Part shown: one piece after another, positions 1 through 4,533 of the stretch | Layout: every line of letters starts with the position of its first letter | Numbering within the stretch: position 1 is the stretch's first letter | DNA from: a virus | Lineage: Duplodnaviria; Heunggongvirae; Uroviricota; Caudoviricetes | Reading direction: 5' to 3' (one strand) | Length of the DNA: 4,533 nt | Virus record (IMG/VR): IMGVR_UViG_2711768021_000006 | Position numbers and translations under genes: made by a program | Notes under the pieces: generated by a model | Database searches by the model: none | Seen by the model: the letters and a program-made list of their open reading frames with translations, nothing else | Told to the model about the DNA's origin: nothing

Positions 1-60
1 CTCTCGTCTGGGGAATATCTCCCCGGCAGCCTTCAGGGAAAAATATCATCAGATGGCTGC

Positions 61-414
61 TTAAAAAAAGAACAAATGGTAGTGTCCGCTATTGCCAGTA
101 CACCTCAATTGCTCTGCGGCTTCGCTCAGAGCTGGCGTATGTTCCCGGCCTACTGATTCACACAGGTAATCAACGAAACCGGACACCAGTTTTCGTTCGC
201 GAGGCGTGATCGCCCCACCGACCGGAGTCCAGTAATCGAAACCCAGTTGCAGGAGTTTGAAAAAACGCTTGTGGAATGCGTAGTTACACACACGCTTAAA
301 GTCTGCGTGTATCCACTCACCTATTTTGATTTGATGCAGAAAATCGCAACTCTCCGGCGTCGCCGGGAGAAGTAATCCGGAAGAGGTTTGTTTGACCAGT
401 TGTATATGTGCCAT
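61..414 (-). CDS. Hypothetical protein, 117 aa (MAHIQLVKQTSSG...), second gene of a two-gene cassette
   Basis: Open frame on the minus strand with stop at 61-63. ATG at 412-414 is preceded by GGAGA 6 nt upstream. The ORF track extends to a TTG at 456 that overlaps the upstream stop (TTGA), but the ATG with a Shine-Dalgarno is the more credible start. Codon usage looks coding. No family recognised. Confidence 0.55.
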   Translation of the reverse strand: MAHIQLVKQTSSGLLLPATPESCDFLHQIKIGEWIHADFKRVCNYAFHKRFFKLLQLGFDYWTPVGGAITPRERKLVSGFVDYLCESVGREHTPALSEAAEQLRCTGNSGHYHLFFF

Positions 415-452
415 CGGCTTTCTCCGGTGGCACGGTGTTACACAGCAGGAGT

Positions 453-740
453 TCAATCCTGCTCAAGATTGTAGATGAGTTTATTCTTCAGCAAAAGCAG
501 AAAACCAGCCTTAAAACCAATCTCTTTCAAAACCCGTAATGATGTGACAAATTCGTCCTCACGCAAAATAAAACCGTCCGTCAGAAGTCCATTACAAAAA
601 TAAAATAACACAGCACCGCTCTTCCTTTGTTGAGATTGCAAACATCTAATGCGGCAATGGCTGACAATCGCTCCATTCTCAACGCGCACAGCATAGAGGC
701 CATTTTCACTAAAAATTTCACGCAATTCTTCGATTTTCAT
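453..740 (-). CDS. Hypothetical small protein, 95 aa (MKIEELREIFSENGLYAVRV...), AT-rich
   Basis: ATG at 738-740 with GGAAGGA upstream and stop TGA at 453-455. Sits downstream of a promoter-like element and 38 nt upstream of the next ORF. Noticeably lower GC than the flanking genes. No family recognised. Confidence 0.5.
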   Translation of the reverse strand: MKIEELREIFSENGLYAVRVENGAIVSHCRIRCLQSQQRKSGAVLFYFCNGLLTDGFILREDEFVTSLRVLKEIGFKAGFLLLLKNKLIYNLEQD

Positions 741-821
741 CTTCAGAATCCTTCCAGATAAATAGCTCTCCCCTGTTCGGGGTCCATCCCTCTTCTCCCT
801 GCGCGCTACTTAAGTGAGTCG

Positions 822-849
822 ATTCTATCTGCGAAGGTGCGCGAATCAA
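822..849 (-). promoter_or_regulatory. Sigma70-like promoter (minus strand): -35 TTGATT (844-849), 16-nt spacer, -10 TAGAAT (822-827)
   Basis: Read on the minus strand: TTGATT-cgcgcaccttcgcaga-TAGAAT-CGACTCAC. Lies immediately downstream of a terminator and about 80 nt upstream of the ATG at 740. Confidence 0.45.
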
Positions 850-860
850 ATTCACCGGAA

Positions 861-914
861 ATAAACAACAAAAAACCCGCCGAAACGCTGAGAGATCACA
901 GCGATGGGCGGGTT
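861..914 (-). terminator. Rho-independent terminator (minus strand)
   Basis: Minus-strand RNA: AACCCGCC-cat-CGCTG-tgatctct-CAGCG-tttc-GGCGGGTT followed by TTTTTTGTTGTTTAT. Outer stem 874-881/907-914 with a nested inner stem and a U-run. The plus-strand orientation has no T-run, so it is unidirectional. Confidence 0.65.
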
Positions 915-953
915 AAGTGCGGGTGCGTTGAGGATGCCTGACACATCAGAGGT

Positions 954-981
954 GGGCGGGGATGGGATCAGCTCCCCGCCC
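954..981. repeat. Perfect GC-rich inverted repeat (9-bp stem GGGCGGGGA / TCCCCGCCC, 10-nt loop)
   Basis: Arms at 954-962 and 973-981. No adjacent T-run on either strand. Lies between the terminator and the 405-nt N-run. Confidence 0.4.
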
Positions 982-1447
982 GGTCACTCTTACTTCCTGG
1001 ATTCGTAGTCTANNNNNNNNNNNNNNNNNNNNNNNNNNNNNNNNNNNNNNNNNNNNNNNNNNNNNNNNNNNNNNNNNNNNNNNNNNNNNNNNNNNNNNNN
1101 NNNNNNNNNNNNNNNNNNNNNNNNNNNNNNNNNNNNNNNNNNNNNNNNNNNNNNNNNNNNNNNNNNNNNNNNNNNNNNNNNNNNNNNNNNNNNNNNNNNN
1201 NNNNNNNNNNNNNNNNNNNNNNNNNNNNNNNNNNNNNNNNNNNNNNNNNNNNNNNNNNNNNNNNNNNNNNNNNNNNNNNNNNNNNNNNNNNNNNNNNNNN
1301 NNNNNNNNNNNNNNNNNNNNNNNNNNNNNNNNNNNNNNNNNNNNNNNNNNNNNNNNNNNNNNNNNNNNNNNNNNNNNNNNNNNNNNNNNNNNNNNNNNNN
1401 NNNNNNNNNNNNNNNNNTGAAGCAGATAGCCTCAAGCACCCGCAGTC

Positions 1448-1477
1448 ATTCTACTTACCTCGCCAATATGAAATCAA
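1448..1477 (-). promoter_or_regulatory. Sigma70-like promoter (minus strand): -35 TTGATT (1472-1477), 18-nt spacer, -10 TAGAAT (1448-1453)
   Basis: Minus strand: TTGATT-tcatattggcgaggtaag-TAGAAT-GACTGCGG. Same hexamers and GACT-downstream context as the element at 822-849. Fires into the N-run at 1013-1417. Confidence 0.4.
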
Positions 1478-1498
1478 TCAGAAAGGTGCCCCATAAAA

Positions 1499-2185
1499 TC
1501 ACTCCTTCTCTTCTTTACCGTAGTGGAGTTGACCAATTTTGATAAGAGGGCGTCCCTGAGATTTGCGGTGTAGATTGGTATCGCGCAGAGAATACACACA
1601 GCCACAATATTCCTGCTGATAGAATTTTTCGCGCTTGCTGATTTCAATCATACGGGACGAGCCGCCCTGCTTGCGCCAGTTATAATCCCAGTACACCATG
1701 CCCGGATAATGCGCGACGGCTCGCCGCCCACAGTCGTTAACCTGCTGCATATTTTTCCAGCGTGAAATGCCCAGTGAACTGCTGATCACACTGAAACCAT
1801 TTTCAGCGGCGTACAGCGCTGTCCGCTCAAAACGCATGTCAAAACACATGGTGCAACGGATCCCTCGTTCGGGCTCCCATTCCATTCCTTTGGCTCGTTC
1901 AAACCAGTTGTCTGTGTCGTAATCAGCATCAATAAACGGCACGCCGTGTTGTTCAGCAAAGCGAATATTCTCATCCTTACGAATTAAATACTCTTTCTGA
2001 GGATGAATGTTCGGGTTGTAGAAAAAGATGGTGTAGTCGATTCCCGAGGCCTGAAGCGCCTCCATCACCTCACCGGAACATGGAGCACAGCAAGAGTGCA
2101 GTAGTAGTTTGTTTGCCCCGTTTGGGAGCTCCAATTTGGGCCGTTTGAAATCAGCAACTGTCATAAATATGTTTATTGGGGTCAT
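1499..2185 (-). CDS. queH: QueH-family (DUF208) epoxyqueuosine reductase-like Fe-S protein, 228 aa
   Basis: Translation contains [11 protein letters not shown] near the N-terminus, an internal CTMC, and [12 protein letters not shown] near the C-terminus, which I recall as hallmark Cys motifs of the DUF208/QueH family. ATG at 2183-2185 (alternative ATG at 2162-2164); neither has a clear Shine-Dalgarno. Stop TGA at 1499-1501. Confidence 0.7.
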
Positions 2186-2332
2186 AAAAATATCAAAGAG
2201 TGTAGCATTAGAACGGGGCTATCGGAAACAGATGTGTGACTGCTCCCCGCCCTTTCGGGTGGTCTCCTGATGATTTGAGGGTGCAGAAATCCCTCCGGTT
2301 AAGGATTAAATTTTTAACAGTGCTAAATTTAA

Positions 2333-2689
2333 TTATTCAGTTCTGGATTTTGTCGCCCTGCGTATCCGCGCTTTCGCGTTACGCTCAATCTGTATCAGCT
2401 TTTCTATATTTCTCCGCCTTTCCTGTTCCTCCTGGCGCAATAGCCTTACATCATCTGCCAGTCTGGTTTCTCTTTTTGCCACAGAGAGCATCCAGTCAAA
2501 CGGCTCCACAACCGCACCGCAGATTTTACAGCGGACCTGACGCTCTTTTTCGTCAACCCGTACAGAGGCGTGATGGCAATATGGTCTTTCCGATGGCTCA
2601 TAAAGAAAATTAACCTGATTACGAGGGTCATCCTCTTTTACCGGAAATAAAACGATATTGCTTAACTCATCTTCTGGTTTTATTTCCAT
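2333..2689 (-). CDS. Small zinc-ribbon-like protein with charged, probably helical C-terminal tail, 118 aa
   Basis: ATG at 2687-2689 preceded by AGGAGAGGAG. Translation MEIKPEDELSNIVLFPV...YCHHASVRVDEKERQVRCKICGAVVEPFDW gives a C-H-H...CxxC cluster, followed by an R/E/K-rich tail. The ORF track's longer version starts at 2746, directly abutting the upstream stop, which is less likely. Confidence 0.6.
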   Translation of the reverse strand: MEIKPEDELSNIVLFPVKEDDPRNQVNFLYEPSERPYCHHASVRVDEKERQVRCKICGAVVEPFDWMLSVAKRETRLADDVRLLRQEEQERRRNIEKLIQIERNAKARIRRATKSRTE

Positions 2690-2746
2690 GCTCCTCTCCT
2701 TTGATGCGAATGCCAGCGGTAATTGAAGCCTGATAGCTAATTTCAT

Positions 2747-3169
2747 TCACAGTATCGCCTCCTGAAAATTACCCTGATAGAAAGCCAGTACACGCTGCAT
2801 AGCTTCGCTCTTCCGGCACTCGCGACAGATTATATTCAGGCGCCTGTCGTAGCGGCGTATTTCTCCGTCAGGTAATGACCAGATAAGGTCCGGATCAACA
2901 ACAACCGGTTTCCTCACCTTTACTCTCGAGAGTTTTTTGCGGGCGCTTTGCCAGTCCTTGCGAGCCTGTTCAGACGGGAATAAGCCGTAGCCAGAATTAT
3001 ATACATCACCACTTGCGACCAGTTCTATGCATAAGCGACCGACAGACGCACGACTGATACCTGTTTCATCTGACAACTGCCGAATCGTGACCCGACCGTC
3101 CTGATGCACGAGTTCCACAATTCGCGTCTTCAGTTCTTCCCGCTGTTCGGGAGTAAAAGGTTTCGCCAT
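2747..3169 (-). CDS. Winged-helix/HTH DNA-binding protein, 140 aa
   Basis: ATG at 3167-3169 with strong AGGAGGA Shine-Dalgarno. N-terminal segment VTIRQLSDETGISRASVGRLCIELVASGDV looks like an HTH recognition helix. Tightly packed after the DnaC-like stop (14-nt intergenic). Confidence 0.65.
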   Translation of the reverse strand: MAKPFTPEQREELKTRIVELVHQDGRVTIRQLSDETGISRASVGRLCIELVASGDVYNSGYGLFPSEQARKDWQSARKKLSRVKVRKPVVVDPDLIWSLPDGEIRRYDRRLNIICRECRKSEAMQRVLAFYQGNFQEAIL

Positions 3170-3183
3170 AAATCCTCCTGAAA

Positions 3184-3745
3184 CTACTTAACAACCCTCG
3201 AATGGCTAACATTCGGACGCCAGCTCTCCCAGTTAAAATTCACCCAGCGCCCGCCGTTCATNNNNNNNNNNNNNNNNNNNNNNNNNNNNNNNNNNNNNNN
3301 NNNNNNNNNNNNNNNNNNNNNNNNNNNNNNNNNNNNNNNNNNNNNNNNNNNNNNNNNNNNNNNNNNNNNNNNNNNNNNNNNNGATAGCTGCCGCTAAGTG
3401 ATTCTTCCCGGTACCAGGTTTTCCGCTGAACGCAAAATTTGTACACCCGGTCATCAGTTCATCGGCGATGGATTTCGCCTGGCTTAACGCGTATCGCTGG
3501 CCGTCGTTCTGCACCTGGTAATTCGCAAACGAGCATTTACGGTGCAACGGCTGGATGCCTGAGCGATTCAGAATTTTTTCCACCCGCAACTGGCGATTCA
3601 GGCGGTTGATCTCCTCGCTACGTTTCTGGCCTTCAGCAAGTTGCCACTCGCGCCACTCCGCTACCGTTCTGAATGGGGCGGTTACATGTGGCGGGGTCAG
3701 TCGGCGGATGCGTTCCAGAACGCCGCCTGTCGCAATATTTTTCAT
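3184..3745 (-). CDS. DnaC-like replicative helicase loader (prophage paralogue), interrupted by assembly gap 3262-3382
   Basis: N-terminal 121 aa (MKNIATGGVLERIRRL...NRSGIQPLHRKCSFANYQ...FSGKPGTGKNHLAAAI) aligns by eye with E. coli DnaC, including the Walker A motif. After the N-run, a different frame (codons from 3261 down to stop TAG at 3184-3186) gives GGRWVNFNWESWRPNVSHSRVVK, matching the DnaC C-terminus (..LWVIFNWDSYRSRVTGKEY). About 100 residues are unaccounted for, so the 121-nt N-run under-represents the true sequence. Confidence 0.8.
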
Positions 3746-4100
3746 GGTCCGTTACCCCCTGAAGCCTGGCGGGATCGCACTGTCCGGCAACGAGACGGTG
3801 TTAACCTGTCGGAGCAACGTCTCAGGCCGAACACCTTTCGGCGCGAACAGGCCCTGGTATTCATTGGCGATGCTGTGTCGAATCACCTGCTCAGGTGTAA
3901 AACCCTGCTGACGGAATTTTTCCAGTTCCCGTATCGCCCCGTTAGCGCCCTGCTCCGTTCGAATCGGTTTTCGCAATGCCTGTCTGAACCGGACCCACTC
4001 ATGCCAGAGTGTTTCCGGCAACCAATCGGGCAGCTCAATAGCCTCCGGCTCGAATTTTTTAGACGCTCGTTTTTGGCGAGGGGGAGATCAGTATTTAGAT

Positions 4101-4120
4101 CTTCCTCTTCCTCTTCCTCT
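4101..4120. repeat. Tandem hexanucleotide repeat (CTTCCT)x3.3, encoding (Glu)6 on the minus strand
   Basis: cttcctcttcctcttcctct read directly. Falls in the linker frame of the initiator gene. Confidence 0.6.
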
Positions 4121-4230
4121 GGTAACGCTTTTTGATCCGTTTGTGTAACGCTGGCAGCGTTACCTTTTCGTTTCAGTTCGCGTATTTTTGTTACTCGCTC
4201 GTTTGTAACCGCCCGTTTTTTTTAGAGCTT
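4119..4230. repeat. Iteron-like cluster of GTAAC/GTTAC motifs with dyad symmetry plus T-rich tracts; candidate replication origin inside the initiator gene
   Basis: GTAAC at 4122, 4145 and 4205; GTTAC at 4159 and 4190. Perfect inverted repeat GTAACGCTG-g-CAGCGTTAC at 4145-4163. T-rich runs at 4129-4133, 4165-4173, 4185-4189 and 4216-4223. A related dyad GTAACGC-cgcga-GCGTTAC lies at 4354-4372. Confidence 0.45.
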
Positions 4231-4428
4231 TTTCCGTTATGACGTTCAAAGTTAGGTAGAGAAAGCCCTCCGTCATTTTCGACCAGCCATCCAACCTGAA
4301 TTAACGCATCAGCAAAACCAGACATAAAAGTGATGCGATCTATTGCACTTTTTGTAACGCCGCGAGCGTTACAATCTGCATTACCGTCTATCATTTGTTG
4401 ATCCGCCCATGCCCAGAAGCGAATAACC

Positions 4429-4533
4429 TGAGGTAGCCTGAGTTTAACGGACACTCCTTCCTGAAATAGAATGGCATCAGAAGGAGCTAATAATGAGCAG
4501 AAAAACCCAACGTTACTCTAAAGAGTTCAAAGC
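4429..4533 (+). mobile_element. Left end of an IS3-family insertion sequence (IS600-like), running off the window
   Basis: Sequence from 4429 begins TGAGGTAGCCTGAG..., and IS3-family ends typically start TGA. The orfA start follows about 64 nt later. The N-terminal peptide MSRKTQRYSKEFK matches my recollection of IS600 OrfA. The right end is not in the window, so the boundary is approximate. Confidence 0.55.
4493..4533 (+). CDS. IS3-family transposase OrfA (IS600-like), 5' partial at window edge
   Basis: AGGAG at 4481-4485 followed by ATG at 4493. Translation MSRKTQRYSKEFK... continues beyond the window. Confidence 0.55.
   Translation, partial: MSRKTQRYSKEFK

Follow-up and report, generated by a model that had tools for sequence, protein, structure and literature searches.

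What is the unit of two small genes that lies, with a promoter of its own, immediately behind a transcription terminator in a lambdoid prophage? In the stretch of DNA analysed here (the window, 4,533 nucleotides), such a unit occupies positions 61 to 860, and a preliminary description had read it as an AT-rich accessory cassette of the moron type that might encode a toxin-antitoxin, superinfection-exclusion or anti-defence pair. Our analysis points to a different answer: the unit is very probably an induction module, encoding the antirepressor, of a lambdoid prophage of the Qin/Rac type, and modules of this kind are already known.

The prophage remnant and its two small reading frames

All genes in the window lie on the minus strand and make up the early-right operon of a lambdoid prophage of the Qin/Rac type, now a remnant, from Shigella/E. 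coli. In the order of transcription, they comprise a truncated ydaU-like replication gene, the DnaC-like ydaV (partly masked by Ns), DUF977, a 137-aa zinc-ribbon protein, QueH, the hokD/sok locus (most of which is hidden by the N-masked positions 1013-1417), a 95-aa ORF and a 117-aa ORF. An intact prophage of E. coli FDAARGOS_944 (L001), the annotation of which was placed on the window with an offset of 4893, is 98.8-99.9% identical to window positions 108-4429 and continues beyond rem, the gene identified below, with DUF1367 (199 aa), DUF1364/YbcO, a DUF1133 Q-like antiterminator, tRNAs and lysis genes. Another locus (L012, CP102341.1) is 100% identical to the window over all of its readable length.

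The prophage is a decayed remnant with IS600 ends on both sides (positions 1-107 and ~4430-4533). Homology to intact loci ends at 4429, and at positions 4430..4533, on the plus strand, a second copy of IS600 is represented by its left end, including the transposase start MSRKTQRYSKEFK; L012 is identical up to position 4533 and has an IS3-family transposase called at the matching spot. This second copy cuts the ydaU-like replication gene and delimits the prophage fragment on that side. The IS600 beside rem is followed, in both L011 and L012, by an integrase fragment and by mod and gal genes, which indicates that the late region has been lost in these loci.

The 95-aa ORF (453..740, minus strand) is a homologue of rem. 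In a BLASTP comparison, its product is 68% identical over 80 residues (E 2e-34) to Rem of the K-12 Qin prophage (b1561), and in a large protein search the family PF27490 'Rem' was pre-assigned to this exact protein and to all 77 homologues returned. The PHROGs search placed it in PHROG 340, where the function is unassigned, and nothing significant was returned when Pfam, NCBIfam and PADLOC were searched locally; phage records label the homologous gene rem or 'prophage antirepressor'. A Shine-Dalgarno sequence, AAGGA, precedes the ATG by ~9 nt, and the family alignment reveals a conserved core, GA.L.Y..G...GF.LR.DEFVTSL..L.E...AG, at Rem residues 42-79. At E <=0.001, 57 representatives were counted among 1.84 billion proteins, which makes this a small family. 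The gene occupies the slot between hok and DUF1367/ydfU, followed by Q, in K-12 Qin, mEp460, Rac of strain 442/2, PPompW and Shigella loci, and the order hok, rem, DUF1367/ydfU is the same in at least seven independent lambdoid prophage loci. By homology and position, we assign the 95-aa ORF to the Rem family, as a predicted part of the phage lysis-lysogeny switch.

The function of K-12 Rem has been addressed directly: its expression lifts the DicA-repressed promoter dicBp 165-fold, and cells that express Rem filament in a DicB- and DicF-dependent manner (Ragunathan et al. 2023, J Bacteriol, PMC10448788). In the same study, DicA is described as a short, Gifsy-type repressor that is not cleavable; the mechanism by which Rem acts on DicA has been termed unknown (PMC11430063). 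Given the tested K-12 protein, the present allele can be expected to act as an antirepressor as well.

The second small ORF runs from the ATG at 414 to the stop at 61 (61..414, minus strand), 38 nt downstream of rem. Its codons 1 to ~102 (414..108) are the N-terminal half of the DUF1367/IrsA nin-region gene, into which the right end of an IS3-family element, IS600, is inserted (1..107, with a terminal inverted repeat at ~78-107); IS600 contributes the remaining ~15 codons and the stop (107..61). Accordingly, the Pfam match to PF07105 (E 1e-46) covers profile positions 1-102 of 198 only: a full-length match to the ~198-residue DUF1367 profile was not found, the match being cut at window 107/108. 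The ORF was assigned to PHROG 319 (labelled NinB/Orf), and the intact gene of 199 aa in L001 is 53% identical to the Gifsy-2 irsA homologue STM1020. Homology to intact prophages begins at base 108, L012 is 100% identical across the junction, and the 3,571 E. coli records that cover at least 80% of a query consisting of positions 1-125 are annotated as IS600 transposase ends. Because window positions 1-107 are an IS600 end, the 117-aa ORF is not a natural gene but an IS600-truncated pseudogene.

The two ORFs of 95 and 117 aa, separated by 38 nt, are thus present as first described, except that the second ends in an insertion sequence. The AT-richness proposed for the whole cassette is real for its first gene, rem having 39.6% GC compared to 48.9% for the window and 45-57% for the neighbouring genes, but does not extend to the second (50.5% GC), and both proteins belong to ordinary conserved families of the region. 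The suggestion that the pair might travel together was borne out: in loci of Escherichia, Shigella, Pantoea, Erwinia, Pluralibacter and Superficieibacter, DUF1367 comes next after a Rem-like gene. These results are of practical value for annotation, given that the exact 95-aa protein is labelled 'hypothetical' in many assemblies and that what looks like a second small gene is a pseudogene truncated by IS600.

The rem allele of the window differs from its relatives at the 3' end of the gene. DNA alignments with L007, PPompW and K-12, together with the protein alignment, locate a frameshift at positions 501..504 (minus strand), where the window has four Ts and the other loci have five (in K-12, an in-frame CTTTT); relative to all other rem alleles, one T has been lost from the run. 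As a result, the usual tail (SAFAEE in the closest allele, P0003) is swapped for LLLLKNKLIYNLEQD. In two AlphaFold models (pLDDT 64 and 72), two beta-hairpins lie between an N-terminal and a C-terminal helix; the new tail, which is hydrophobic, is modelled at pLDDT below 50. A Foldseek search of the PDB with the model yielded no informative structural neighbour (best E 3.7), and a sequence-profile search of the PDB yielded no relative of solved structure (best E 0.09). An Sm/Hfq-like fold, for which there was a weak Hfq lead, was rejected, no structural match to Sm-fold proteins being found.

The frameshift lends some weight to the alternative that rem in this prophage is a decaying relic without function, its altered tail inactivating or destabilising the protein in a remnant that has not yet been deleted. 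The destruction of the neighbouring DUF1367 gene, the position of the fragment between two IS600 copies and the loss of the late genes in L011 and L012 fit this reading, as do the deletion in the T-run and the low-confidence hydrophobic tail. However, the conserved core up to KAGF is unaffected, the frameshift beginning past the last conserved residues, and the tail is variable across the family: one relative stops two residues past the AG motif, and a separate clade of 92-aa proteins (P0044, P0045) has a comparably long tail. Moreover, the promoter, the Shine-Dalgarno sequence and the start codon of rem are intact, the repressor gene is still there, and the exact 95-aa protein is found in 4,517 blocks of the assembly collection. 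We therefore regard a relic as unlikely, and a loss of function of this Rem by the frameshift as possible but not likely.

Terminator, promoter and leader upstream of rem

The terminator belongs to the gene upstream. The hokD toxin gene (990..1145, minus strand) is visible through its last codons (...DYESRK stop) at 990-1012, the rest being masked; PF01848 HOK_GEF is detected in identical loci, and a match to the Rfam sok model (117 bits) lies just upstream in L001. Directly downstream of hokD/sok, positions 866..914 (minus strand) contain a Rho-independent terminator, which is the 3'-terminal hairpin of the hokD mRNA, as indicated by its fold, its relatives and its position. It consists of an 8-bp GC-rich stem (914..906 paired with 882..874) followed by a U-run, within a region (855-1012) that folds significantly (z = -4.3). 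In this lineage, the loop carries a 23-nt insertion, compared to the simple CCCGC-TTCG-GCGGG-T7 hairpin of the relatives. Between hokD and the terminator, CCTCAACGCACCC (921..933, minus strand) is invariant in six loci and complementary to the hok mRNA 5' end, GGGTGCTTGAGG, as taken from L001 and its sok Rfam match; by analogy with the known design of hok mRNAs, this is likely the fold-back (fbi) element, pairing with GGGTGCTTGAGG. The real toxin-antitoxin element at this locus is, accordingly, the neighbouring hok/sok, which is also the source of the terminator.

As the preliminary description stated, the terminator is followed by a promoter-like sequence. The predicted sigma-70-type promoter of the rem unit (822..849, minus strand) comprises a -35 hexamer TTGATT at 849..844, a 16-nt spacer and a -10 hexamer TAGAAT at 827..822. 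Taken alone, such a match carries little information, the scan having found one where 1.0 +/- 1.0 were expected, that is, about one per kilobase. The comparison of related loci is more telling. The spacing and hexamers are TTGAAG-N18-TAGAAT in K-12, mEp460 and PPompW, TTGAGG-N16-TAGAAT in 13P484A and Rac of strain 442/2, TTGAGG-N16-TAAAAT in L007 and TTGATC-N16-TAGAAT in L026, so that TTGAnn, a spacer of 16-18 nt and TA(G/A)AAT are retained in 5/5 diverged upstream variants, with the -10 either invariant or improved to TAAAAT. By our own estimate, TTGA would turn up by chance at one of three spacings with a probability of about 0.012 per variant. All this is in spite of the fact that the 40 nt upstream of the -10 are only 37-50% identical between loci. 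Furthermore, in L026 a Fic cassette lies between hok and the Rem-like gene, and a second terminator copy with the promoter stands directly before the Rem-like gene. Since the hexamers are retained in the five diverged variants and in this duplicated terminator-promoter arrangement, we conclude that the rem promoter is real, in the sense that it is evolutionarily conserved, and is presumably active. The claim that the unit has a promoter of its own behind the terminator is, in this respect, upheld.

These observations also bear on the possibility that the hexamers are not a working promoter and that rem is reached only by transcripts from the hok promoter or the early-right operon that read through the hok terminator, in which case Rem would be a feed-forward amplifier after induction rather than the trigger. 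The chance-level scan result would be compatible with such a scheme, the 23-nt loop insertion could weaken the hok terminator, and no known regulator site was found at the rem promoter. Against this stand the conservation across the five variants within poorly conserved sequence, the renewed terminator copy and promoter behind the Fic cassette, and the existence of relatives with LexA-controlled promoters of their own at the same place (see below). We consider transcription by read-through alone improbable.

Alignments of relatives predict a rem 5' leader of ~73 nt (741..815, minus strand). The segment comprising the -10 and the leader is 76-85% identical between loci and the rem coding sequence 71-100%, so that the leader is kept about as well as the coding sequence but no better. 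Given this level of conservation, together with the lack of significant RNA structure in the leader (fold z = -0.19) and of any Rfam match, a structured leader of the riboswitch or thermometer kind was rejected. The same applies to control by CsrA through GGA motifs of the leader, which number 6 compared to 4.6 +/- 1.3 in dinucleotide shuffles (p = 0.25) and for which literature support was not found. Control by the prophage's own repressor or Cro was also rejected: no 8-mer other than a T-run occurs in both the immunity region and the rem promoter, and mEp460 and Qin have the same type of rem upstream region but different immunity regions.

LexA boxes and the proposed mode of action

Control of rem by LexA can likewise be dismissed for the window and its close relatives. 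A LexA box, CTGT-N8-ACAG with at most two mismatches, is absent from window positions 741-860, and CTG-N10-CAG was found within 400 nt upstream in 0/11 Escherichia/Shigella Rem loci. The situation is the opposite among distant relatives. A profile built from distant relatives, run against a single genome from each species, recovered short genes of the Rem type (59-91 aa) in Citrobacter, Pluralibacter, Buttiauxella, Pantoea, Erwinia and Superficieibacter (L017-L025), which have the core GF.LR.DEFVTSL in common, and a LexA box (CTGT-N8-ACAG, 0-1 mismatch) lies 40-400 nt upstream in 7/7 of these distant relatives. In two Citrobacter loci, the box precedes dinI, which in turn precedes the antirepressor gene; dinI is confirmed by Pfam in L017 and looks degenerate in L019. 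In Pantoea and Erwinia, the box lies between hok and the Rem-like gene, and DUF1367 comes next; Pluralibacter and Superficieibacter have the box, the Rem-like gene and DUF1367 in this order. An invariant CTTAAGTAGCGCGCAG just past the -10 of rem matches only five of the eight LexA core positions, without the G of CTG, and is at most a relic of a LexA box.

By these comparisons, the Escherichia/Shigella Rem clade has this module in a form that lacks recognisable SOS control. The sharp division, with a LexA box in the distant relatives and none in the Escherichia/Shigella loci, is modestly new, and we did not find it stated in the literature; it fits the published view that the inducer of rem is unknown, the inducing condition being given as such in PMC10448788 and likewise in a later preprint. 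The comparison (7/7 vs 0/11) narrows the question of the inducer but does not answer it. Tentatively, the Escherichia/Shigella Rem clade might be an SOS-controlled antirepressor module that has lost LexA control and gained an N-terminal extension, and that has retained a promoter in which the -10 and leader are fixed and the -35 and spacer diverge freely. If this scenario is correct, the rem unit would be the missing signal input of Qin/Rac-type prophage switches, and the Pantoea and Erwinia relatives with a LexA box, which have the same order of hok, antirepressor and DUF1367, would offer a direct handle on what took the place of SOS control.

The presumed target of Rem lies outside the window and was read from the 100% identical locus L012. 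There, 6 kb upstream and adjoining a Cro-like gene, a 135-aa repressor (L012 3659-4066) consists of a helix-turn-helix domain only (HTH_3), without the S24 self-cleavage domain, and is 62% identical to DicA. Antirepressors can be specific to their repressor; compared to the K-12 pair that was tested, identity is 68% for the present Rem and 62% for the resident repressor.

Taken together, these findings translate into a simple model. The 3' hairpin of the hokD mRNA would end transcription arriving from the early-right operon, and the sigma-70 promoter would drive the ~73-nt leader, rem and, originally, the genes for DUF1367/IrsA, YbcO and the Q-like antiterminator. Rem would then inactivate the short, non-cleavable DicA-type repressor of the same prophage, and the early promoters would be derepressed as a consequence. 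As the early operons are silent in the lysogen, the promoter of an antirepressor must escape the phage repressor, and this need for a repressor-independent promoter accounts for the design in which a terminator is followed by a promoter. Inactivation probably involves direct binding of Rem to the repressor, a mechanism that we propose by analogy because the structural model of Rem is of moderate confidence and has no informative neighbour. The context of the short relatives, which lie behind LexA boxes with DinI before them or DUF1367 behind them, is what SOS-controlled antirepressors exhibit and thus supports the antirepressor reading of Rem. Rem-type antirepressors decide whether toxic genes, dicB and dicF among them, are switched on in cryptic Qin/Rac-like prophages, so the regulation of Rem affects host physiology.

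Comparison with known systems

A phage moron, in the sense of Hendrix and colleagues, is an autonomous promoter-gene-terminator insert in lambdoid phages. The rem unit resembles a moron in that its promoter stands right after a terminator and its first gene has a GC content below that of its neighbours, and the hok-rem interval does take true cassettes, for example the Fic cassette in L026-L028. In contrast to a moron, however, rem has a fixed slot, a Rem-family gene being present in the slot of every related locus examined with no pattern of presence and absence; the unit has no terminator behind it, the only candidate (363..346) being a 5-bp stem inside a coding sequence, at chance level; and the role of rem is regulatory, in the phage switch, unlike the lysogenic conversion brought about by morons. 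Given, in addition, that both protein families are fixed at this position in related phages, that PADLOC matches neither protein, that the second ORF is an IS-truncated 199-aa gene and not a small partner protein, and that a published function (PMC10448788) explains the first, an accessory moron encoding a toxin-antitoxin, exclusion or anti-defence pair is largely refuted and extremely improbable.

The closest characterized counterpart is rem of K-12 Qin. It occupies the same slot between hokD and DUF1367/ydfU, with the same -10 and a leader that is 80% identical, within an element that likewise encodes a DicA-type 135-aa repressor and lacks a LexA box at this promoter. The two loci differ in that the resident repressor is only 62% identical to DicA, the -35 and the spacer are not the same, the tail is frameshifted in the window (95 vs 83 aa) and the downstream gene is cut by IS600. 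The short Rem-like genes (L017-L025), presumably GfoA-like, share the core G..L.Y..G...GF.LR.DEFVTSL and are followed by DUF1367, with hok before them in Pantoea and Erwinia; unlike rem, most of them lack the N-terminal extension, and all have a LexA box.

A further parallel comes from the Gifsy prophages, in which ~1.3 kb past the replication genes a terminator-like palindrome is followed by a LexA-controlled promoter and an operon of dinI, a small antirepressor gene (gfoA or gftA) and an irsA homologue (Lemire et al. 2011, PMC3121763). The unit described here lies, similarly, about 1-2 kb downstream of the replication genes, behind a terminator-like palindrome and with its own promoter; a small antirepressor gene is followed by irsA/DUF1367 (53% identity), and the target is a short, uncleaved repressor. 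It differs from the Gifsy module in lacking a LexA box and dinI, no ORF being present between the promoter and rem, and in having hok/sok upstream instead; at the protein level, Rem has an extra N-terminal part of ~35 residues compared to the Gifsy antirepressor. Similarity to Gifsy-2 GftA, which we took to be the ORF between dinI and irsA, was not detected (hhalign probability 1%; HMM search of all six frames negative). The relationship of Rem to Gifsy-2 is positional, and the link to GfoA is the published two-step PSI-BLAST chain (PMC10448788). The two-gene unit behind the terminator is the Gifsy-type module described in 2011, with hok/sok replacing dinI.

IS600 bracketing and gene content of the prophage fragment

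The window begins and ends in IS600 sequence (1-107 and 4430-4533), and because these two ends lie in the same orientation at both termini, the bracketing of the 4.3-kb prophage fragment, judged from the sequence, resembles that of a composite transposon. Beyond the IS600 copy adjoining rem, the identical locus of CP102341.1 carries an integrase fragment as well as mod and the gal genes; the late genes have therefore been deleted.

Between the replication genes and hokD, the early operon of the prophage contains a gene for epoxyqueuosine reductase QueH (1499-2185, minus strand; Pfam E-value 2e-65), a metabolic gene that is unusual at this position. A further gene on the minus strand (2333-2746) encodes a 137-aa protein of PHROG 1621, annotated in RefSeq in a shorter, 118-aa form, with a weak zinc-ribbon match below the Pfam threshold. 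Inside the ydaU-like gene, a perfect tandem repeat comprises 3.5 copies of TCTTCC (4100-4120). Related loci align with a break or an overlap precisely at this repeat, which suggests, at the level of sequence comparison, that its copy number varies. Of two runs of N in the window, one (1013-1417) covers the hokD/sok locus and the other (3262-3382) a portion of the DnaC-like ydaV gene, so that the hok context can be read only through L001, a near-identical intact prophage.

The hok terminator and the hok and rem promoters

Comparison with relatives revealed that, in the lineage to which the window and L001 belong, the terminator loop of the hok mRNA carries a 23-nt insertion (883-905, minus strand) that is a small hairpin in its own right. 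In K-12, mEp460, PPompW and others, the hairpin is simply CCCGC-TTCG-GCGGG. The presumed hok promoter (TTGATT-N18-TAGAAT, L001 6245-6216) and the rem promoter (TTGATT-N16-TAGAAT, window 849-822) have identical hexamers, an identity that is probably coincidental.

A Fic cassette between hok and rem in other prophages

In other E. coli prophages (L026-L028), the hok-rem interval contains an inserted gene pair (3088-4174), namely a 59-aa gene and a Fic-domain gene (161 aa), and after the pair the hok-type terminator occurs a second time. The insertion has the look of a true moron-like cassette. Behind it lies a gene for a 57-aa Rem variant, P0067, which has only the first ~23 residues in common with Rem and differs in its C-terminal part.

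LexA-boxed relatives in other Enterobacterales

Among the distant loci L017-L025 (Citrobacter, Pluralibacter, Buttiauxella, Pantoea, Erwinia and Superficieibacter), every short Rem-like gene is preceded by a canonical LexA box. In the Buttiauxella locus L020 (1461-1961), two proteins are encoded ~0.9 kb upstream of the LexA-boxed Rem-like gene: one of the IrrE/Peptidase_M78 type and one of 135 aa without a Pfam match. The region may thus contain a different kind of system for inactivating the repressor. The Pantoea and Erwinia loci share with the window the gene order hok, antirepressor, DUF1367, but differ from it in the additional LexA box.
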